This document shows, piece after piece, positions 8,813 through 18,974 of a DNA stretch of 64,000 nt (within the stretch, counting starts at the first letter, position 1; every line of letters starts with the position of its first letter). The stretch comes from an uncultured bacterium (lineage in GTDB: Bacteria; Krumholzibacteriota; Krumholzibacteriia; LZORAL124-64-63), in assembly GCA_963732385.1 (NCBI GenBank), contig CAVSZB010000007.1, forward strand, positions 641,685 through 705,684, in the 5' to 3' direction. Under the pieces are notes generated by a model. The model was not told the DNA's origin. It did no database searches and saw only the letters and a list, made by a program, of their open reading frames with translations. Both the position numbers and the translations under genes were made by a program.

Positions 8813-9655
8813 CTAGTCGATCGACCCCTTGACGAAGGTGTTCGCGTAGCGGAACCAGTTCACCTTCATCTTGCCCACGATGTGACCGAGCACGCCGTTG
8901 TCCGCCTTGCGATCGGCGTAGTTCTCGACGACCTCGGTCAGCGTGAACGAACCCTGCAGCGGCAACTGCTTGGCGTTGAGCAGTTCCAGCATCCACTCCG
9001 CGCCGGGGCTCAGTTCCACGATCTCGAGCGTGGCGTTCGGGAAGACGGCGAACCAGCCCTGCTGCTGGGGAGCGGCCGGCTTGGGCGCACGCACGAAACG
9101 GGCAACGAGCGACTGCACCTGGATCGTGGCGCCGCCCGGGTCCTTCGGCAGGTAGTTCTTGGCGTCTTCGATCTTCTTCCAGTCGAGATCCGGCAGGGGG
9201 GCTCCCGGAGTCTGCGTCTGGTCCGACGTTAGTCTGATCACGCGCGGCAGAGCATACGTGAAGACCGAATCGACCATGGTCGCCTGTCCGCCGCGCTTGA
9301 CGCGCCGCACCTTGAGATGCGAGACAGGCGTGAACAGCTTCTGCACGCCCAGGAGCGCTCCCTGATAGGAGGAGACGTTCTGCTCCAGATCCTTGGCGAC
9401 CACGAACTCGAGCACATTGCCGTCGCGAACGATGCCCGCATTCCCTTTGACATATTCGAACTGCGGCGCGTCGATCTCGAACAGGAAGTTCTTGCTCAGA
9501 GTATCGCCGCGGGTAACGGCCCTGAGAGAGGCGTACACGAACGGGTCGACCGCCTTCTTCTTGCCGCAACCCACAAGGCTCAGGCAGGACAGCAGCGCGA
9601 CGACGCCGAGTAGCAACAAGAGGCCCCGGCTACGCATGGACCGCATCAAAGACAT
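8813..9655 (-). CDS. Lipoprotein of unknown function
   Basis: There is a signal peptide with an LVGC lipobox (MSLMRSMRSRGLLLLLGVVALLSCLSLVGCGKKK). AGGGAGG lies 8 nt upstream of the ATG at 9655. The product is rich in K/N/F/Y, like a secreted protein. Confidence 0.7.
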   Translation of the reverse strand: MSLMRSMRSRGLLLLLGVVALLSCLSLVGCGKKKAVDPFVYASLRAVTRGDTLSKNFLFEIDAPQFEYVKGNAGIVRDGNVLEFVVAKDLEQNVSSYQGALLGVQKLFTPVSHLKVRRVKRGGQATMVDSVFTYALPRVIRLTSDQTQTPGAPLPDLDWKKIEDAKNYLPKDPGGATIQVQSLVARFVRAPKPAAPQQQGWFAVFPNATLEIVELSPGAEWMLELLNAKQLPLQGSFTLTEVVENYADRKADNGVLGHIVGKMKVNWFRYANTFVKGSID

Positions 9656-9828
9656 TGGAATGACCTCCCTTGGGACTTCTTTTGCCTTGCGGGTGGGGTG
9701 GCAAGGCCGACACATCTCCAACCTGCACCGGAACTCTGCCTGCGGCAGCGCAGGGCACGAATAATTCCCGGATACGCCTCTCGAACTGCATGGAAAATGC
9801 GGCTTTGGCACCAGGAAAGCAAGCCCGA

Positions 9829-10503
9829 TCACCGACCGTGGCGCGGGACGCCGGGCAATGACGGCAGGCGGGCCAGCATTTCGAGCAAACGGGTCTGCTC
9901 CGGCGCCTCCCATTCCCAGAGCGCGTGAAAAACCTGCCAGTGCTGCGGCAGCAGCACTCCGCCGGCCGAAAAGACCCGGAAGAAGCGACGGCGACGCTCG
10001 GCCAGCGAATAGCCGGGCAGGATGGCCCGTTTGAGCCGACCGTCGAGCGTCACGGCCCAGGCCTCCTGGAACGCCTCGGCCTCTGTCGGCGGCACCTCGG
10101 CCGGCGAGACGGTGCCGTCCCGCAGATCGCGAATCATGAGGAACTGGTGGTAGAGGATGCGTTCCGCCTTCCGGGGCGAAAAGGCCGCCGGATCGCACGA
10201 TTCCGCCACCGGCCCGGCGCGCAGCTCCCAGGCAAGCAACCCCCTCCCCTCAGCGGCGCCCGGCGCGTGATCGCGCAGGAAATGGTCGGGGTGGAACCAG
10301 AGCGCCATCCCGGGCAGCCGCCCCGGCGCGGAGGCGGAGGCAACCGTCGTCACCCAGATCCGTTCGTCAGCGGTGAGGTCGTCGAGCCACAGAGTGAGCG
10401 ACGCCAGGTATCTACCAAGGTCGAGCCGCGCGGCGGCGGTTGCGGCCAGAGGCCGCAGGACGGGAACGAGGGGGTGGTCTCCCGGCAACCAGTCCACGTG
10501 CAT
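9829..10503 (-). CDS. Hypothetical protein (224 aa)
   Basis: The ATG at 10503 is preceded by GGGGGAGGAG. It lies 30 nt downstream of the lyase gene on the same strand. I recognise no motif in it. Confidence 0.5.
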   Translation of the reverse strand: MHVDWLPGDHPLVPVLRPLAATAAARLDLGRYLASLTLWLDDLTADERIWVTTVASASAPGRLPGMALWFHPDHFLRDHAPGAAEGRGLLAWELRAGPVAESCDPAAFSPRKAERILYHQFLMIRDLRDGTVSPAEVPPTEAEAFQEAWAVTLDGRLKRAILPGYSLAERRRRFFRVFSAGGVLLPQHWQVFHALWEWEAPEQTRLLEMLARLPSLPGVPRHGR

Positions 10504-10532
10504 GGCAGCCACTCCTCCCCCCACGACGATCG

Positions 10533-11930
10533 TCAGGCGCCAAACAATTCCCCGCCGCCCAGCGGCCGCAGCCGGGCCCGGAAGTGGCGCAACACCTTCG
10601 GCGCCGATTCGATTTCCAGCCCCCGCAACCGCGACTTGTCCCGTGCGATCCGTCCGCACGCCTCCGCCACATAGGCCAGCTGCGCCAGGCTGTAGACCCG
10701 CCGGGGAATCGCCAGCCGCACCAGTTCCATCGCTGACGGCACGAAGGCGCCGCTGGCCGGATCATCGTGGCCGAACATCAGGCTGCCAATCTCCACGGCC
10801 CGGATGCCGGCTTCGAGATAGAGCGCGGCGGTGAGCGCCTGCCCCGGGAACTGTTCCGGCGGAATGTGAGGCAACAGCGCCTTCGCGTCCACATAGACCG
10901 CGTGTCCACCGACCGGCGTGAGAATCGGGACCCCCGCTTCCTGCAGCAAACCGCCCAGGTAGGCGACCTGCCCCACGCGGTAGCTGAGGTATTCGAGGTC
11001 GAGCACCTCGCGCAGCCCCTGGGCGATGGCCGCCAGGTCGCGCCCCGCCAGGCCGCCGTAGGTCGGGAAACCCTCGGTCAGGATGAGCAGGTTGGTGACC
11101 TGTTCGGCCCAGTCGTCGCGGTTGAGGCAGAGAAATCCGCCGATGTTGACCAGCGCATCCTTCTTGGCGCTCATCGTGCAGCCGTCTCCAAGCGCGAAGA
11201 TCTCGCGGGCGATCTCCGCGACCCCGCGATCTGCCTGGCCGGGCTCCCGCTGGTGGATGAAGTAGCAGTTTTCAGCGAACCGGCAGGCGTCGAAGATCAG
11301 CGGCACGCCACGGGCGCGACAGAACGCGGAAACCTCGCGGATGTTCGCCAGTGAGGCCGGCTGTCCGCCGCCACTGTTGTTGGTGATCGTCATCATGACC
11401 AGCGGGATCCGCGCCTGTCCGTACCGGTCGAAAGCCGCTTCCAGCTTCTGCAGCGACATGTTCCCCTTGAAGGGATGGTCACCGTCGGGACGAAGCCCCT
11501 CATCGATGACACAGTCGAGGGCGATCGCGCCGGTCGACTCGACGTTGGCCCGCGTGGTGTCGAAGTGCGTGTTGTTGGGCACCACGTCGCCCGGTTTCAG
11601 CGCCGTGGCGAAAAACAGGTCCTCGGCGGCCCGTCCCTGGTGGGTGGGGATGACGTGCCGGTAGCCGAAAATGCCACGAATGGTCGATTCGAAATCGTTG
11701 AAACTGCGACTGCAGGCGTAGGCCTCGTCGCCGGTCATCATCGCGGCCCACTGAGCATCGCTCATGGCCGAGGTGCCGCTGTCGGTGAGCAGGTCGATGT
11801 AGGTGGCGTCGGAGGGGATCCAGAACAGGTTGTAGCCGGCCTGTCTAAGCAGCGCGAGCCGTTCCTCGCGACTGATGAGCCGGATGCGCTCCACGACCTT
11901 GGTTCGGTAAGGCTCGAAAGGCCACTCCAT
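10533..11930 (-). CDS. Beta-eliminating lyase (tryptophanase / tyrosine phenol-lyase family, PLP-dependent)
   Basis: Motifs YIDLLTDSGT, PTHQGRAAE and the PLP-lysine region GDGCTMSAKKDALVNIGGFLC are present. So are FPTYGGLAGRD and GGHAVYVDA. AGGAGTGG precedes the ATG at 11930. Confidence 0.85.
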   Translation of the reverse strand: MEWPFEPYRTKVVERIRLISREERLALLRQAGYNLFWIPSDATYIDLLTDSGTSAMSDAQWAAMMTGDEAYACSRSFNDFESTIRGIFGYRHVIPTHQGRAAEDLFFATALKPGDVVPNNTHFDTTRANVESTGAIALDCVIDEGLRPDGDHPFKGNMSLQKLEAAFDRYGQARIPLVMMTITNNSGGGQPASLANIREVSAFCRARGVPLIFDACRFAENCYFIHQREPGQADRGVAEIAREIFALGDGCTMSAKKDALVNIGGFLCLNRDDWAEQVTNLLILTEGFPTYGGLAGRDLAAIAQGLREVLDLEYLSYRVGQVAYLGGLLQEAGVPILTPVGGHAVYVDAKALLPHIPPEQFPGQALTAALYLEAGIRAVEIGSLMFGHDDPASGAFVPSAMELVRLAIPRRVYSLAQLAYVAEACGRIARDKSRLRGLEIESAPKVLRHFRARLRPLGGGELFGA

Positions 11931-12033
11931 CGTTCCACTCCTCATGCGGCGCGGACAGTGTTATGCTGGCGGCGGCAAGATCGCCCCGCGGCGAAGGTAG
12001 CCCGCCGAACGCGGTCGAACAAGGGTCAAGACC

Positions 12034-12516
12034 ATGCCACGTCCGCCCCGCTGGCCCGGCTGGCGCGCCGCCTGGCGCACGCTCGCCGGAGGGGATCATT
12101 CGAACCGCAACCTGGCCGCCGCGCTCGCGCTGGGCGTGCTGGTGGCGCCCACGCCGGTGCTCGGCCTGCACACCTGGATGGCGATCGGACTCGCCTTCAC
12201 GTTCCGCGTCAACCGCCTCGCGGCGTTCGTCGGATCGAACGTCGCCAACCCTCTGACCATGATGCCGCTGGTCTGGCTCGACATCGAACTCGGGGCCCGT
12301 CTGCTCGGCCGCCCCGCCCCCGCCTGGCCCGGGCGTGCCGAAGTCTGGGCGCAGTTGGGATGTCTCTATCTGGAGGCCTGGGCCGGGGCGCTGGTCTTGG
12401 GAGCGGCGGGCGCCCTGGCGACCTACGTTCTGGCGCGTCTGTTGTTGCCGGGGTGGCGTCGACGCGCTCAGTCCGCGGCCGCAGCCTCGTCACCAGTCAG
12501 CGGAGACGATTCCTGA
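12034..12516 (+). CDS. DUF2062-like small membrane protein
   Basis: Hydrophobic segments and a conserved-looking LGLHTWMAIGLAFTFRVNRLAAFVGSNVANPLTMMPL core are present. It is 160 aa. Its 3' end overlaps the giant ORF convergently by 49 nt. Confidence 0.55.
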   Translation: MPRPPRWPGWRAAWRTLAGGDHSNRNLAAALALGVLVAPTPVLGLHTWMAIGLAFTFRVNRLAAFVGSNVANPLTMMPLVWLDIELGARLLGRPAPAWPGRAEVWAQLGCLYLEAWAGALVLGAAGALATYVLARLLLPGWRRRAQSAAAASSPVSGDDS

Positions 12517-15500
12517 TACAGCACCATCACGCGCTCGGTGGCGCGGGCGAACACCCGGTAGTGCCGCTGGCGGGACTCACTTCCGAGACAGAGATAGACC
12601 AGGGTGTCGGCGCCGGTGGCACCGCTCGTTTCCGGGGTCGCCAGGGTCACGACCGGCGCGTGGGGCGTCGCCGCGGGAACGGCGAGCCAGTCGGCCAGTT
12701 CCAGCCGCCAGGCTGCCCACAGCGGCCGCTTCACGAAGTGGCCAGGATTCTCGCCGCCGGCTTCGCGCACCAGCCGTTCCACCCGCCGCTGCACCTCGGG
12801 CCGGGCCAGCCACGGAGAGGCCCAGCCACTGCGGGAGACCCGTGCGTGGATCTCCGCGAGCGAGGCCTCTGCCAGCGACTCGGCCGCGGCGAGCCAACGG
12901 GCATAGGCCGCTGCGCCGGACGGATCGAGCAGCACCGGCAGGAGCGGCGTCCGGGCGCCGTCCGCCTTGCCGGCCTGCGCGGCGATATCGCTGACGACGG
13001 CGACGAATTCCAGCGTGCCGGGCAGCAGCAGCGAATCCAGTTCCCAGCGCAGAACCGGCAGCCAGCCCCGGCCGGCGAGCGAGCGCCCGATATAGAGCAG
13101 ATCATCCCGGGCCGTCGCCACGACGGCACTGCGACGGCCGAGCCGGCCGGAAGACTCTTCCGCCCCCAGGTGCGCCACCACTTCGTCCAGGCTCGCCGCG
13201 CCATGCGCCACCGCCTCCCCGCGCTCACGCCGCAAGGCACGACCGCGCGCCGGCCGACCGTCAGGTTCGGCCGCAAAGTGACGCGTTTCCTCCCACACCC
13301 GGCGCGTCTGCGCCCGCTGATCGACACAGTCCACGACCCGCTCCTGGGCAGGAGTGGTCAGGAACAGATGCTCCCAGGGGGCCTCGGCGGCGGCCGGATC
13401 GACCGTCACCAGCAGACGACCGCCGCGATAACGTTGCTGGACGGCGAAGCGGGTCTCGCGCGGCAGCGCCTCCGCATCGATCAGCAGCGCCGTCTCCCGC
13501 GCCGGGTCGCCCGGCAGATATCGACCGGTGAGGGGCGTGGCGCCGGCGGGCGGCGTGCCCTCGGGCGCGATGAAGAGTGCCGGCGCGACCGCCGCGTCGA
13601 CGTCGCGCCGCCAGGCCAGATGGACCCGCGCCGCCACCGCGGACGATGGACACCAGACACTCACCTCGCCGGGCCGCAGCGCGCCGGACGCCGCGGCGTC
13701 AGCCAGCCCGGCGGCCACGGCGGCCAGACGCCCGGTGCCGGCCGGTCCGCGCAGGACGAGCCATCCCGGCTCGGGGCCGGCGAGCAGGTGAGCCACTTTT
13801 GCGGCCGCCTCCGGCGCCGGCGCTCCGACCACGGGTCGCTGCTGCGGCGCCCGGCTCCGCGCCTCTGCCGGCGCGGTCCCGGCGCCCACGCCTGACTCCG
13901 CGCCGAGACGCGCCGCCTGGCCCGTGCGCCAGGCATCCCCATCGGTCAGCAACGCGACCGTGCGGGCGCGGGCCGCCGCCGGTGCGTCCGCCAGCCAGGC
14001 GAGCGCCGACGTGTCGAGCGCCTCTGCCAGCGGCGCGCCCTCGATCCACCAGGCTCCCAGCAGGCAGCCGACCATCGCCACTTCGGACGGCCAGGCCTCA
14101 CCCGGCGCGAGTGCCACTCGTGCTCCCCCGGAGTCACACACGGCCGTCGCCAGCAGGGCGGTCGCCGCGCCGGCGAACCGTTCCGCCTCCTGCGACAGTC
14201 GCTCGGCCACGGCGCGCGGCCGACCCAGCGTGCCAAGCAGCCTGCGGGAGGAGAACAACACCCCTTCGGGCGCGCGCCAGAGCAGCTCCTCCGTCCCGGT
14301 AGTCCCGCGGAACAGATCACCACCGCCACGCACCGACGCCGCGCTCCGCAGGCGGAGCGACATGGCGAGCAGGAACCGGTCAAGCCAGGCCAGATCTTCT
14401 TCCGTATCACCGTCCCCGCCGACTGCCAGATCGCAGACGACCGGCAAGCCCTCCACCGCCCCTTCGAGCCAGGCCGGCAACCGCACCGCGGCCAGGTCCG
14501 CGGCGCGCCCGAGGCGGTACTCCAACTCTGCGAGCGGCAGCGCCAGACGCAATATCGCGGGCTCGTCGGCGCGCCCGGAGTGCGCCGGTTCACAACCGGT
14601 TTCCAGCACGCTCAGCCAGGCCAGCGTGGAGAGCGACGCAACAACGGTCTCGGTCGGCAAGCCGGTCAGCGCCTCCACCACCGCCGCCGGCAGCGTGCCG
14701 CGACAGGTGCGCGCCCACCCGGGCAACTCGGAGCCTGTGCCGACGGGCACGAGCGCGAGCGACCGCTTCACCCGCTCCAGCGCCGGCGGCAACGCCGGAA
14801 CATCCAGATCATCGAGGTGGCTGGCCACGATCAGCGGGCGGCCGGAGCTCGACATCCCCTCTCCGACCCCGGTGCTCAGACCGAATCGGACAACCGACCC
14901 GTACGGCAGGTCCACCCCTTCGTCGTCCAGTTGCAGCACCCGCCACAGGCTTCCGTCCGGTCCGTTTGCTTCCAGCCGCCCGTTCGCTTCTCCGACAACA
15001 AACCCCATACAGGCAAGTTCTTCTTTTATAATGGAATAATCTGCTTTTCTCACATGACACACGAACTCGTGGTCGGGTGGCGCGCGGTGCCGCATGCCGT
15101 CCAGACGCGCCCTCAGAACGGCTCTTCGCCGCCCCTCACGCTGTGCGCTGCTCTGCCAGGTGGAGAGGTCGAGCCCGCAGGCTGCACAGGCCGGCCTTGC
15201 CCCCACCAGCGGCATCGCCCCGGCGCAGTCGGGACAGAGGGCCGACGCGCTCTCGCCCGGCCAGAACTCCTCGGCAGCATCGATCAACAACTCCGGATCT
15301 GCCATCTTCCCAACGGGCTGCGAATTTTCGGCGAGAAAGTGGGCGAACAGGCGGCGCCAGGGGCCGGCCAGACCGCCGAGACAGAAATCGGTGCGAGGCA
15401 GATCGCGGGCCAGGAACCGCAACGCCACCGCAGCCCCGAGCCGTGGTCGCGGTCCGCTCGGCAACCAGGCCTCCAGCCCGAGCACGAACGCCGCCAGCGG

Positions 15501-18500
15501 CGGCCGCGAAGCGATGGCGGCGCGCAACCCCGGATCGGCCAGCGTTTCCGGCGCGGCCCAGAGAACCGGTCCGAGCGGCGGACGGGGCGCGGTCGCGCCA
15601 TCCACTCCGGCGACCGTCGGCGCCGCCGTGGGAAAGACCGCCGCCAGAGCTCCCGCCCCCATCGGCGGCGCCGGCCCGACCGCGAGCAGCCATGCCCCGG
15701 TCTCGCCGCGCTCCCGCGCCGTCGCGACACTCCGCAGCCACGCCGTCCAGACCGCCGCGCCGTCGCCATCGAGCAGCCGGGCGCCGCGCGGCGACGGCTC
15801 CGACTCAGCCTCGCCCGATCCGGCCCACGGCGCCTCCGGGTCGGAAACGGCTCCCTCCTCTCGGCGCCAGGCCGCGACCACCTCCATACCCACCAACGGC
15901 ACCGCTCCGCGCCGGCGCAGGGAGCCGCGTCGGGTCTTCAGCCCCGGCTTCGCCTGCGGCAGATCGTAGCCGACGGCGCCCCCGGCAACGACCCTCGCCA
16001 GCACATCTTCCCCGCGCGCGGGCAGACCCGCGGCCCCGAAGCCGCCCGGCAGCGGAAAACGGCGGCACCAGCGCGGATCGGCCACATCGACAGACGCCGC
16101 ACCGCAGGCCAGCAGGGCGTTCACTTCGAGGCTGCAGAGTCGCCGCTCGTCCGTGAGGGCGACCGCCCGTTCACGATCGGCCAGCGCCCACGCGTCGGGC
16201 CGATCGGCGGCGGGCCTCACATGGTCGGCAACGCCCAGGCTGTCGAGCACCGGAACCACCAGACGCGCACCTGCCAGCGAGGCGGACGTTACCGCTTCGC
16301 TCCACAGTTCCGCGGGATCGAGACAGTCGGGCGGACCGCTGCCGGCCTCGAGGCTGAGTCGTCCGGCGGCGAACGCGCGCCACATTGCCACCGCCGCAGC
16401 CCCGTGCGCCGGCAGCGCCACCACCGGCCGCTCCCCGTCCGCCATCAGGCGCGTCACGTGCCCCAGTCCGCCTGCCCCTGCCTCGTCGGCCAGCACGCAG
16501 GCATCCGGCGCCACGCCTCCGCACGCCAGCGCCAGCGGGGCGTGCCCCCCTTCCCCGGCGAGGCTCGCCTCGACCGCGCCGTACGGCGCCAGCCACGCCG
16601 TCAACAGCGCCGCGAGATCGTCCCCCAGAAAACAGCCGTCGCGGACCAGCGAAAGATGCCGGTGTCCGCGTCGCGCCAGCTTCGCATGCAGTTCCTCCGG
16701 TCGGGCGAGTCCGGCGCGCCGGAGCTGCCAGTGGATCCGCGCGCTGTCCAGGAAGATCCAGGCCGCTTCTCCCCCCTCCCGCACCCCCCAGATCGTGTCG
16801 CGGATCGGATCGCGATCCCGCAGGCGAGAGGGAGGTCCCACGACCACGCACGATTGCCGCGCCCGCGCGGCGTATTCCCCGGCCCACGGGTCGTCGGCGC
16901 CCGCTTCGCCCGGGATCACGCGGGGCAACGAGTCGGCCAGTGCGGCGTGCCGATCCACGACCGGCAACACCCCGGTCGCCCGCGGACGGAGCCGGAGGTG
17001 ATCGAGAAGATCGCCGTTGTGGGACTCGCTCAACCGCAACCAGTGGAAAAGAGGCAGCAGATCAGGTTCCGCTGCCCGCGACGCCGCAGAGTCGGCCGCC
17101 GGCAGCGCCTCCAGCCAGGCCAGTGCCGCCCGCAGCGCATGCACCTCTCCCCCGGGGGGGATGAGCGTGATGCCGCGCCTTCCGGAGACCGCCGACGCCA
17201 GGTCGGCCAGGCGCGCGGCCTGGTCCAGAACCACCCGCCAGACAGCCTCATCCGCTCCCCAGGCGCGCAGCACGGCGAACGGACGGGGCGAGGCCAGCAG
17301 CAGGGCGGCGGCGGACGACAGCGCCGGCCGCCTCTCCACCACGTCCGCGGAAACCGCGCCCAACTCAGGATCGGGACGCTCGGCGAGCGGCGGCAGACGC
17401 CATTCGGCGCCGACCGCGACGTCATCCAGGGAGCCGCCCTGCCCCGCAGCCTGGAAGCGGGCCACGAACACCGCCGCCCGGTCGCCGCGGGAGCCGAGCC
17501 GCCGCACCCCCGCCCGGGTCCGCGGATCGAGCCCGCGCAACCGGGCAAGGCACGCCAGCCAGAGGAATCCGGCGTCGAGCGCAGCCGCCAGCTCCGGAGC
17601 CGCGGCCGAACGTGACGCGTCAGACACTTCACCGGCGGCGTCCGGGGGCGCGTCCCCAGCCGGCGGGGCCAGCAGCGGATGGCCGGTCTGCCGCTCCCAC
17701 GTCGCGCGCCAGGCGACCTCCTGCAATCGCCTGAGCCGGGTCGCAGCCTCCGGGGTCAGCCCATTCGCCGGCAGTTGCGATTCCAGCAGCGCGACCGCAA
17801 ACGGTCCCACCGGCTCGCCGGCGCAGTCATCCCCGAGTTCGCCCCAGAGTCCCCGCCGCCCTTCATCCCACCGGACCAGCCGCCCGCGGCAGGGGCGCAG
17901 GAGTCGAAGCAGGACCTCCGGATCGTCGCCTGCCCGCCAGAGGGCCACGTCACGCGGTTCGTCGTCGCGCCACAGCACGCAGGTCAGCCCCTGCGACGAC
18001 ATCGCCAAAGACGCCCACGCCTCGGCCGGGGAGTCGGCCGGGTTGCGTCGCTCCAGCGCGCGGCGGGCTGCGCCGAAACGTAGCGCGACCGCGCCGTCGG
18101 CGGGAGGACCGACCTCCAGCAGCGCACGCGCCTCGTCGTGCCGCGGGACCGGCAGGTGCTGCGCGTCCAGGTTCGCCAACAGTTCGATCAGGCGCACGCG
18201 CGCCGCCTCGGCACGCGACCGGAAGGGCTCGGGCAGGGCCAGACAGGCCCGGTAGAGCGGGATCGCCGCCGCCGCGTCGCCTGCGTGGGCGTCGGTCAGA
18301 CGGGCGACGCGCCAGATCCGTTCCGCGTGGAATGGTCCGGACTGCGAGAAATATGCCGCTTCGAGCAGGCGCAGCACCGCCTGCGCCAGCGCAATCCGGC
18401 CGGCCGGCGCAACGTTGCCGGCCGCGGCCAGAGCGTCCAGCCACCCCTCAACCTGGGCTCCCAACGCCACACGATCGGCTTCTGCCAGCGGCAGATCGGC

Positions 18501-18974
18501 ACGGATCAGCGCCGGATCGAAGGGGCGACCGGCGCGGCAGGCAGCGGCGATCGTCGCCGGCAGAAGACGCGCCGCAACCGCGCCATCGCACGGATGGAGC
18601 CGGCTGGCAGTGGTGAGACGCAGCGCCGTGGTCAGGAGCTCGAAATCCTCTGCCGGCGCCCCCGCCGGTCCGCCGGCCGGAAAAACGCCCTGGCTCAGAG
18701 CCGCGGCCACCGCGGCACCGGCCCGGTCCAGGTAGTCCGCGCGAAACGTCTCCGCCGCGGCGGGCCAGCGGCCGGACGAGTGCGCATCGGCCTCGGCGCG
18801 ACGCGCCCGTCCCCAAAGCCGGCGTGCGGCATCGGTGACCGTCTCCGAGAGGAAGACCCGGCCGGGCGAGCGCTCCCGCAGCTCGAGCGCCGTGGCAAAG
18901 GCCGCCTCGGCCTCGGCGAGAGCCCCCGCAGCGAGACGCTCACGGGCGGTCGCCAGCGCATCCCAGTAGCTCAT
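12468..18974 (-). CDS. Giant multidomain protein (2168 aa): low-complexity N-terminal 1200 aa, Cys4 zinc ribbon, C-terminal SF1-helicase-like domain with degenerate ATPase motifs
   Basis: The reading frame is uninterrupted for 6.5 kb. The ATG at 18974 (MSYWDAL) has GGAGGG 8 nt upstream and lies 35 nt downstream of leuS on the same strand. Motifs are CPDCAGAMPLVGARPACAACG, GPAGTGRL (Walker A-like), LLIDAEA (Walker B-like) and YRVFARATERVMVL (motif VI-like). Confidence 0.75.
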   Translation of the reverse strand: MSYWDALATARERLAAGALAEAEAAFATALELRERSPGRVFLSETVTDAARRLWGRARRAEADAHSSGRWPAAAETFRADYLDRAGAAVAAALSQGVFPAGGPAGAPAEDFELLTTALRLTTASRLHPCDGAVAARLLPATIAAACRAGRPFDPALIRADLPLAEADRVALGAQVEGWLDALAAAGNVAPAGRIALAQAVLRLLEAAYFSQSGPFHAERIWRVARLTDAHAGDAAAAIPLYRACLALPEPFRSRAEAARVRLIELLANLDAQHLPVPRHDEARALLEVGPPADGAVALRFGAARRALERRNPADSPAEAWASLAMSSQGLTCVLWRDDEPRDVALWRAGDDPEVLLRLLRPCRGRLVRWDEGRRGLWGELGDDCAGEPVGPFAVALLESQLPANGLTPEAATRLRRLQEVAWRATWERQTGHPLLAPPAGDAPPDAAGEVSDASRSAAAPELAAALDAGFLWLACLARLRGLDPRTRAGVRRLGSRGDRAAVFVARFQAAGQGGSLDDVAVGAEWRLPPLAERPDPELGAVSADVVERRPALSSAAALLLASPRPFAVLRAWGADEAVWRVVLDQAARLADLASAVSGRRGITLIPPGGEVHALRAALAWLEALPAADSAASRAAEPDLLPLFHWLRLSESHNGDLLDHLRLRPRATGVLPVVDRHAALADSLPRVIPGEAGADDPWAGEYAARARQSCVVVGPPSRLRDRDPIRDTIWGVREGGEAAWIFLDSARIHWQLRRAGLARPEELHAKLARRGHRHLSLVRDGCFLGDDLAALLTAWLAPYGAVEASLAGEGGHAPLALACGGVAPDACVLADEAGAGGLGHVTRLMADGERPVVALPAHGAAAVAMWRAFAAGRLSLEAGSGPPDCLDPAELWSEAVTSASLAGARLVVPVLDSLGVADHVRPAADRPDAWALADRERAVALTDERRLCSLEVNALLACGAASVDVADPRWCRRFPLPGGFGAAGLPARGEDVLARVVAGGAVGYDLPQAKPGLKTRRGSLRRRGAVPLVGMEVVAAWRREEGAVSDPEAPWAGSGEAESEPSPRGARLLDGDGAAVWTAWLRSVATARERGETGAWLLAVGPAPPMGAGALAAVFPTAAPTVAGVDGATAPRPPLGPVLWAAPETLADPGLRAAIASRPPLAAFVLGLEAWLPSGPRPRLGAAVALRFLARDLPRTDFCLGGLAGPWRRLFAHFLAENSQPVGKMADPELLIDAAEEFWPGESASALCPDCAGAMPLVGARPACAACGLDLSTWQSSAQREGRRRAVLRARLDGMRHRAPPDHEFVCHVRKADYSIIKEELACMGFVVGEANGRLEANGPDGSLWRVLQLDDEGVDLPYGSVVRFGLSTGVGEGMSSSGRPLIVASHLDDLDVPALPPALERVKRSLALVPVGTGSELPGWARTCRGTLPAAVVEALTGLPTETVVASLSTLAWLSVLETGCEPAHSGRADEPAILRLALPLAELEYRLGRAADLAAVRLPAWLEGAVEGLPVVCDLAVGGDGDTEEDLAWLDRFLLAMSLRLRSAASVRGGGDLFRGTTGTEELLWRAPEGVLFSSRRLLGTLGRPRAVAERLSQEAERFAGAATALLATAVCDSGGARVALAPGEAWPSEVAMVGCLLGAWWIEGAPLAEALDTSALAWLADAPAAARARTVALLTDGDAWRTGQAARLGAESGVGAGTAPAEARSRAPQQRPVVGAPAPEAAAKVAHLLAGPEPGWLVLRGPAGTGRLAAVAAGLADAAASGALRPGEVSVWCPSSAVAARVHLAWRRDVDAAVAPALFIAPEGTPPAGATPLTGRYLPGDPARETALLIDAEALPRETRFAVQQRYRGGRLLVTVDPAAAEAPWEHLFLTTPAQERVVDCVDQRAQTRRVWEETRHFAAEPDGRPARGRALRRERGEAVAHGAASLDEVVAHLGAEESSGRLGRRSAVVATARDDLLYIGRSLAGRGWLPVLRWELDSLLLPGTLEFVAVVSDIAAQAGKADGARTPLLPVLLDPSGAAAYARWLAAAESLAEASLAEIHARVSRSGWASPWLARPEVQRRVERLVREAGGENPGHFVKRPLWAAWRLELADWLAVPAATPHAPVVTLATPETSGATGADTLVYLCLGSESRQRHYRVFARATERVMVLYQESSPLTGDEAAAAD

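Follow-up and report, generated by a model that had tools for sequence, protein, structure and literature searches.

A C-terminal SF1A helicase-like domain with replaced motor residues in a giant protein family of Krumholzibacteriota

What is left of a helicase when the residues that drive it have been replaced, and why would a lineage keep it? One gene from an uncultured bacterium of the Krumholzibacteriota raises this question (GenBank assembly GCA_963732385.1, contig CAVSZB010000007.1, forward-strand positions 641,685 to 705,684; this whole stretch of 64,000 nucleotides is the window referred to below, and coordinates count from its first letter). The gene encodes a giant protein, the C-terminus of which had been described in a sequence-only reading as a superfamily 1 (SF1) helicase-like domain with inactivating substitutions in Walker A and B, that is, a pseudo-helicase. 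Our results favor, with a probability of about 0.7, an ATPase-dead module of the SF1A (UvrD-like) type that is retained for binding or scaffolding, by analogy with AddB and RecC. The gene, the domain and its motifs are placed as follows.

12468-18974, minus strand: the giant gene, 2,168 amino acids plus stop in one open reading frame, holding all three motif strings of the sequence-only reading.
12495-13817, minus strand: predicted SF1A (UvrD-like) helicase-fold domain, residues ~1720-2160, from an AlphaFold2 model and Foldseek.
13725-13748, minus strand: Walker A (motif I), GPAGTGRL, residues 1743-1750, from translation, the model loop and hhalign.
13626-13652, minus strand: motif Ia-like CPSSAVAAR (family consensus CPDxATAAR), following model strand 72-76.
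13467-13487, minus strand: Walker B (motif II), LLIDAEA, residues 1830-1836, at the end of model strand 129-132.
13362-13403, minus strand: motif III, VDPAAAEAPWEHLF, aligned by hhalign with GDDDQSIYGWRGA of UvrD.
12684-13049, minus strand: all-helical insert of ~120 amino acids in 2A, at the place of UvrD 2B (model helices 277-398).
12516-12563, minus strand: motif VI, HYRVFARATERVMVLY, residues 2138-2153 (model helix 436-443 and strand 446-454).

Translation confirmed that GPAGTGRL, LLIDAEA and HYRVFARATERVMVLY lie on the minus strand at the C-terminus of the giant gene, and position 13748, where the sequence-only reading ended its domain, is exactly the first G of GPAGTGRL. For the fold, residues 1700-2168 were modeled with AlphaFold2 (model numbering plus 1699 gives the protein residue). 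A run on a 4-sequence alignment reached a predicted local distance difference test score (pLDDT) of 40 and was discarded; the model used, built on 64 aligned orthologues, has a pLDDT of 91.4 and a predicted template modeling score (pTM) of 0.91. Foldseek comparison of this model with the PDB gave matches of probability 1.0 led by UvrD, PcrA and Rep, with a best E-value of 3e-12 (UvrD 4c30 and 2is6, PcrA 1pjr and 3pjr, and Rep 1uaa, at 3e-12 to 1e-8). Also matched were UvrD 4c2t and PcrA 1qhg and, further, AdnB, AddA/AddB, RecB, GajB and the helicase domains of SLFN11/14. No Upf1-type chain is among the 50 PDB matches listed; the best solved structures there are UvrD-like (SF1A), and RecD appears only in the hhalign comparison described below. 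The 50 listed matches from the viral structures of BFVD mostly carry the names of SF1-type or replicase helicase domains, and about one third are nameless. Template modeling scores (TM-scores) were ~0.5 in the structure comparison, consistent with absent accessory domains.

The model has two tandem RecA-like cores (1A and 2A) in SF1 topology, and the order of its elements resembles that of an SF1A core. Strand 38-43 leads into the GPAGTGR loop and helix 50-63, strand 72-76 into CPSSAVAAR, strand 129-132 into DAEA and strand 154-159 into DPAAAEAPWEHLF. The C-terminal part consists of strands 409-413 and 423-430, helix 436-443 (YRVFARA) and strand 446-454. Neither accessory domain of the UvrD type was found in the model: strand 100-103 precedes a low-confidence loop of ~21 residues (104-124) at the site of 1B in 1A, and 2A is interrupted at the 2B site by helices 277-398. 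This helical insert carries the family-invariant residues P1985, G1986, E1989, W2027, R2064 and W2089. As modeled, the C-terminal ~450 residues are an SF1A (UvrD-like) fold without 1B. The SF1 fold put forward in the sequence-only reading is thus borne out by the model and by the Foldseek and BFVD matches, and the P-loop, for which that reading had proposed a structural model, connects strand beta-1 of a RecA-like domain with the helix that comes next.

Sequence libraries returned none of this. Pfam and NCBIfam gave no helicase or P-loop match to the whole protein or to its last 440 amino acids at E<=10, only a weak zinc ribbon. The alignment to Pfam AAA_11, AAA_12 and AAA_30, which had been suggested as a check on the domain, found no match at all for the window protein even at E<=10, nor did UvrD-helicase, UvrD_C or AAA_19. 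When 22 family members were scanned with Pfam one by one, helicase hidden Markov models (HMMs) matched none of them at E<=1. Sequence-profile searches of the PDB with 4- and 22-sequence alignments returned noise only in the SF1-like region; the best match there was a designed 'phosphate-loop protein' over the P-loop (E 0.075). These results raise the possibility that the motifs match by chance in a protein that is rich in Ala, Gly and Arg, is encoded by high-GC DNA and does not descend from a helicase: it contains 20% A, 10% R and 9% G, and the GC content of the window is 65-75%. In a protein of this composition G..G.G[KR] is expected 0.17-0.19 (~0.18) times by chance, and two orthologues carry extra chance copies elsewhere. 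The string alone is not significant as a piece of sequence; it is significant because its columns are conserved in 58 diverged orthologues and because the model places it in the beta-1-to-helix loop described above.

Also speaking against chance is the alignment, with hhalign, of the family profile to real E. coli recD, recB, uvrD and rep. The comparison with UvrD is colinear over 425 columns (P 2.9e-3, or 8e-4 with 1B deleted), and that with RecD has P 1.3e-3, RecD VISGGPGTGKTT...APTGKAAAR pairing with VLRGPAGTGRLA...CPSSAVAAR. Both run colinear through motifs I, Ia, II, III, IV and VI, with GPAGTGRL set on GPGTGKT (RecD) and AGSGKT (UvrD), IDAE on DEFQ, VDPAAAEAPW on GDDDQSIYGW and YRVFARA on YVGVTRA. 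Alignments with Rep alone and with RecB alone were not significant, and a control profile of the N-terminal 1,699 amino acids gave P 0.4-0.9 against UvrD, RecB, RecD and Rep. The P values near 1e-3 are weak and single-residue motif assignments carry some uncertainty, yet both the RecD and UvrD alignments (P 8e-4 to 3e-3) put Walker A, Walker B and motif VI where the sequence-only reading had put them. With a high-confidence SF1 fold, a colinear UvrD/RecD alignment set against a clean negative control, and columns conserved over 58 orthologues, a chance origin of the motifs is highly improbable.

In this register the residues of the motor are largely replaced. The Walker A columns of the family read G (58/58), G (57/58), S or T (49/58) and G (52/58), followed at the position of the Walker A Lys (UvrD K35) by R in 52 members, K in four and A in two; in the window protein it is R1749. 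The Mg-binding Thr (UvrD T36) corresponds to L1750, and the family has H in 19, L in 18 and T in four of 58. GK[ST] occurs in 0 of 58 members. The suggested look at the Arg and Leu substitutions in orthologues thus shows Arg in 52/58 and a residue other than Ser/Thr across the family, Leu itself being found in the 18. Motif Ia is well conserved (P 59/60, A 55/60 and A 50/60). At motif II the Walker B Asp (UvrD D220) corresponds to I1832, and model position 133 is L, C, V, A or I, acidic in 0 of 62 members. The catalytic Glu (UvrD E221) is D1833 (position 134: E 48, D 6, G 8), and the motif II Gln (UvrD Q223) is E1835 (position 136: Q 46, E 14). Walker B is degenerate, as had been claimed, but the Asp in LLIDAEA takes the position of the catalytic Glu rather than that of the Walker B Asp.

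In motif III the Asp is kept (D 53, E 10 in the family), the gamma-phosphate-sensing Gln (UvrD Q251) is A1862 (A 24, E 18, L 12), the Trp (UvrD W256) is W1867 (W in 59/64) and the DNA-contacting Arg (UvrD R257) is E1868 (E in 62/64). Motif IV residues Y283 and R284 of UvrD, which recognize adenine and sense the gamma-phosphate, respectively, correspond to R1887 and A1888; the Y283 position is Arg or other in the family, and the R284 position is Arg in 25/64. The Gln of the Q-motif (UvrD Q14), also used in adenine recognition, is V1727, with V, L or I in the family. Motif VI, aligned to UvrD AYVGVTRAMQKLTLTY, has R2144 at the place of the TRA Arg (UvrD R605; R in 53/64), and H2138, at its start, is kept in 62/64. 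The arginine finger of motif VI was thus identified; Walker A, Walker B, motif III/IV and Q-motif were not recovered in canonical form. Intact GKT or DE residues were found nowhere else in the domain.

The domain is evidently maintained and not decaying, because the family conserves the glycines and the Arg of the P-loop together with the carboxylate and the Arg of motif VI, and because the ratio of nonsynonymous to synonymous substitution rates (dN/dS), calculated against the 87% identical orthologue at locus L064, is 0.17 over residues 1720-2168, compared with 0.33 over the remainder. Few parts of the giant protein are as well conserved as the SF1-like domain, and the GxxG[ST]GR loop is among its best-conserved stretches. 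Positions 134 and 136 (residues 1833/1835, window 13470-13478) covary, as E/Q in 46 members, G/E in eight and D/E in five; P0007 has D at 134 with Pro at 136. Every complete member retains a carboxylate next to the P-loop, even where it has moved by two residues. The residues with the highest invariance are specific to the family (among them WEHLF, D1958, W1971, P1985-G1986, E1989, W2027, W2089, G2131-x-E2133, H2138 and S-P-L 2157-2159), and many cluster at the junction of 2A and the insert. The description of the substitutions as inactivating stands insofar as the residues are replaced, with the loss of ATPase activity read from those residues, but the P-loop is strongly conserved and not merely decayed. 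The pseudo-helicase reading as a whole is supported: it withstood every test proposed for refuting it, namely that intact Walker motifs would lie elsewhere or that the region would show no SF1 fold.

A second dN/dS value, against the orthologue at L007:2887-9513 (metagenome-assembled genome, MAG, MFD01299.bin.2.49), is meaningless since two frameshifts lie inside that gene. The gene is split over three reading frames (0, 1, 0), probably through long-read indel errors and not as a pseudogene, because close relatives are intact.

More distant relatives (P0088, P0093 at L065:2-1402, P0094 and P0095) were seen only as contig-end fragments, and a search for full-length proteins of this sister group also found contig-end fragments only. 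The fragments share the C-terminal signature HYRVLG..ESLTVLYSEIDP, and P0088 and P0095 keep the UvrD-like 1B insert. Walker A of the sister group is GVAGSGRTT, with Arg, and motif II is VLVDD. Because these fragments also have the P-loop Arg, the change from Lys to Arg seems to predate the split of the giant-protein family from its sister group.

Could such a domain still work as a helicase or NTPase with non-canonical motifs, with Arg in place of Lys, the acid at 1833/1835 as base and the motif VI Arg as finger? The basic, acidic and Arg-finger positions are retained, the domain is under purifying selection, and four members have Lys. However, Walker A Lys-to-Arg changes in RecA-like ATPases, such as RecA K72R and Rad51 K133R, are established to keep binding and cripple hydrolysis; the Thr and Asp that would coordinate Mg, like the Gln of motif III and the Arg of motif IV, are missing or unconserved; eight members have Gly at the Glu221 position; and the 22 members produced zero helicase HMM matches at E<=1. 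Because Mg ligands, adenine-recognition residues and gamma-phosphate sensors are replaced family-wide, established SF1 enzymology argues strongly against canonical Mg-ATP hydrolysis, which would be unlikely for these sequences, and we consider an active motor of this kind quite unlikely.

The preferred reading is that the domain would lack canonical Mg-dependent ATP hydrolysis, to judge from its residues, and would not be a translocating motor. It would be a rigid module that binds or scaffolds a strand of nucleic acid, a ligand bearing phosphate, or another part of the giant protein itself. R1749 would most likely either pair with the acid at 1833/1835 and plug the old nucleotide pocket or hold an anion without Mg2+.

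Several observations weigh against this reading. The P-loop glycines, the Arg, the acid equivalent to Glu221 (54/62) and the motif VI Arg are kept beyond what a structural relic needs, Lys is present in four members and GRT in four, and the old active site may leave room for ligand binding or unusual chemistry. On average the domain bears a net charge of -5 (range -21 to +10). Nucleic-acid binding in the manner of UvrD, in particular of single-stranded DNA, appears doubtful because the motif III Arg is Glu (62/64) and because of this mean charge.

A different possibility is that the domain is a non-hydrolytic nucleotide or phosphate sensor. Without Mg2+, its Arg P-loop would bind ATP, ADP or some other phosphorylated molecule, and this binding would allosterically determine how the two lobes, and the giant protein with them, are arranged. 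Consistent with this are the very strong conservation of GxxG[ST]GR, the motif VI Arg in 53/64, the carboxylate by the loop in every complete member, and GSGRTT in sister fragment P0095, by which the Arg is old and stable. There is also a precedent in AddB, where a retained Walker A stabilizes the Chi complex (PMC3321194). However, the family has lost both Mg ligands as well as the Q-motif and the Tyr of motif IV, by which adenine is recognized, and affinity and specificity for ATP would need new contacts. We regard a sensor as possible but on the improbable side.

The binding and scaffolding role draws on comparison with known systems. AddB has a UvrD-like fold that has lost its motifs except motif I and is used to recognize Chi (PMC3321194), and RecC is described in the same source as an inactivated SF1 fold that acts as a scaffold and scanner of single-stranded DNA. 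AddB chains are among the Foldseek matches of the giant-protein model. The N-terminal domain of AddB (PDB 3u44/3u4q/4cei) shares with the giant protein a UvrD-like SF1A fold in which the motifs are lost and a motif I-like P-loop is left; it is a binding device and not a motor (PMC3321194), and by analogy the giant-protein domain may be one too. Unlike the giant protein with its Arg, however, AddB has a canonical Walker A Lys and binds nucleoside triphosphate, and it has domains 1A, 1B, 2A and 2B, whereas the giant-protein domain lacks 1B. AddB also has an Fe-S cluster nuclease at its C-terminus and is partnered by an active motor, AddA, whereas the giant-protein domain stands C-terminal to 1,700 residues, with no nuclease domain or partner motor gene detected. 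RecC of RecBCD likewise keeps the SF1 fold without the catalytic motifs, but has no P-loop remnant where the giant-protein family keeps a conserved Arg P-loop, and it belongs to a three-protein machine encoded with recB and recD, neighbors that the giant gene lacks. Of the features of AddB/RecC-type helicase-nucleases, an SF1 fold with lost motor motifs was found, and an association with an active motor and nuclease was not.

UvrD, PcrA and Rep (4c30, 2is6, 1pjr, 3pjr, 1uaa) are the best structural matches and have motifs I, Ia, II, III, IV, V and VI in the same order; they also share with the giant-protein domain the Trp of motif III and, following motif V, a G-x-E element. They differ in that identity is only 9-14%, 1B is absent and 2B replaced in the giant protein, and its Walker A Lys/Thr, Walker B Asp, motif III Gln and Q-motif are all substituted. 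Utp25 (PMC9539457) and PriA of Deinococcus radiodurans (PMC4504706) are likewise described as helicase folds with naturally inactivated motifs, but these are superfamily 2 proteins of known pathways (ribosome assembly and replication restart, respectively), whereas the giant-protein domain is of the SF1A type. A link to anti-phage defense helicases such as GajB was found neither through PADLOC, which gave no meaningful match for 4 family members, nor through a defense island.

The ~2,170-residue giant protein is cytoplasmic, with no transmembrane-like segment seen, and is restricted to Krumholzibacteriota. In a word-indexed search, the full-length orthologues numbered 16, with lengths of 2,028-2,299 amino acids and 31-89% identity. 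An exhaustive HMM search of the C-terminal profile against 1.84 billion representatives returned 81 clusters, nearly all proteins of ~1,670-2,290 amino acids or pieces of such proteins, and the SF1-like domain is C-terminal in every one; ordinary helicases gave zero matches in this search. Scanning GTDB species genomes with the ESHNGDLLD motif identified 57 loci with the giant gene. All informatively named carriers are Candidatus Krumholzibacteriota or Krumholzibacteriia, and the rest have generic MAG labels. Among loci L008-L063, the label 'uncultured Fibrobacteraceae bacterium' is attached to many carriers and a Gemmatimonas or Gemmatimonadales label to two; all of these are probably placeholder or wrong taxonomy.

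The giant gene is single copy. Its start codon at nucleotide 18974 (MSYWDAL) was set by an identical 2,168-residue database protein (P0004), is preceded by a Shine-Dalgarno-like GGAGGG site, and begins 35 nucleotides past the leuS stop. Apart from the SF1 domain, the sole recognizable element of the protein is a zinc ribbon.

15162-15254, minus strand: zinc ribbon CxxC...CxxC, residues 1241-1271 (Pfam DZR_2, E 0.0094).

Pfam Zn_ribbon_3 matched 7/22 family members scanned singly, and PDB sequence profiles gave weak zinc-ribbon matches. The ribbon sits mid-protein, where conservation is lowest. In the ESHNGDLLD block (17001-17027, minus strand), H652, N653, G654, D655, L656 and D658 are invariant in the 22-member alignment, and WGV...WVFLDSA and DPRWWRR are further near-invariant N-terminal blocks. 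Such blocks could mark a catalytic or metal site. An internal duplication was rejected, as the C-terminal profile was negative against the N-terminal 1,699 amino acids.

The genes around the giant gene that bear on its context are given below.

10533-11945, minus strand: tryptophanase-subfamily gene (Pfam Beta_elim_lyase 1e-77; NCBIfam NF009709, 656 bits).
9829-10659, minus strand: hypothetical gene downstream of the tryptophanase-like gene.
8813-10198, minus strand: hypothetical gene downstream of the tryptophanase-like gene.
12034-12516, plus strand: DUF2062 gene, converging on the giant gene and overlapping its 3' end by 49 nucleotides (12468-12516).

At all ten loci examined, namely the window and nine others with 27-87% identity (L002, L004, L064, L008, L010, L029, L040, L052 and L059), the giant gene is followed directly by a tryptophanase-like gene in the same orientation. 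The two could form an operon or be functionally linked, or the arrangement could be just phylum-wide gene order. Beyond the tryptophanase-like gene follow two hypothetical genes and then pfk and mgsA. Both hypothetical genes are syntenic in L002, L004 and L064 and have no match in Pfam or NCBIfam; one of them begins with a lipoprotein-like signal, LLLLLGVVALLSCLSLVGCGKKK. The gene upstream of the giant gene differs by locus (leuS, a subtilase, or rnhB-yraN). The DUF2062 insertion is also present in the close relative L064 and is absent from the more distant L002 and L004. Pfam identified no second helicase or nuclease domain among 22 members, and the neighbors are leuS, tnaA, pfk and mgsA. A defense-system or mobile-element reading is rejected on the basis of this housekeeping, syntenic neighborhood.

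That inactivated helicase domains serve as binding devices is already known from RecC, AddB and other pseudohelicases, and the principle is not new. New is an uncharacterized, phylum-specific family of proteins of 2,000-2,300 amino acids, single copy, syntenic and under purifying selection throughout a candidate phylum whose bacteria are uncultured. Recognition of the C-terminus as a UvrD-derived module gives a first structural foothold for defining domain boundaries and point mutants. Also new is a natural Lys-to-Arg P-loop in 52/58 lineages and in the sister group, a case for the role of a P-loop after hydrolysis has been lost. We suggest only tentatively, as an idea with rather low odds, that the GxxG[ST]GR loop, the carboxylate and the motif VI Arg make up a working Mg-independent ligand site that switches the giant protein. 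If so, the site would bind a nucleotide, a polyphosphate, a phosphorylated molecule or nucleic acid, and the family and its GSGRTT sister group would be a distinct, old 'Arg-P-loop' lineage of SF1A and not a one-off dead domain. A core function specific to Krumholzibacteriota would in that case fall to the giant protein, whose gene always directly precedes a tryptophanase-like gene.

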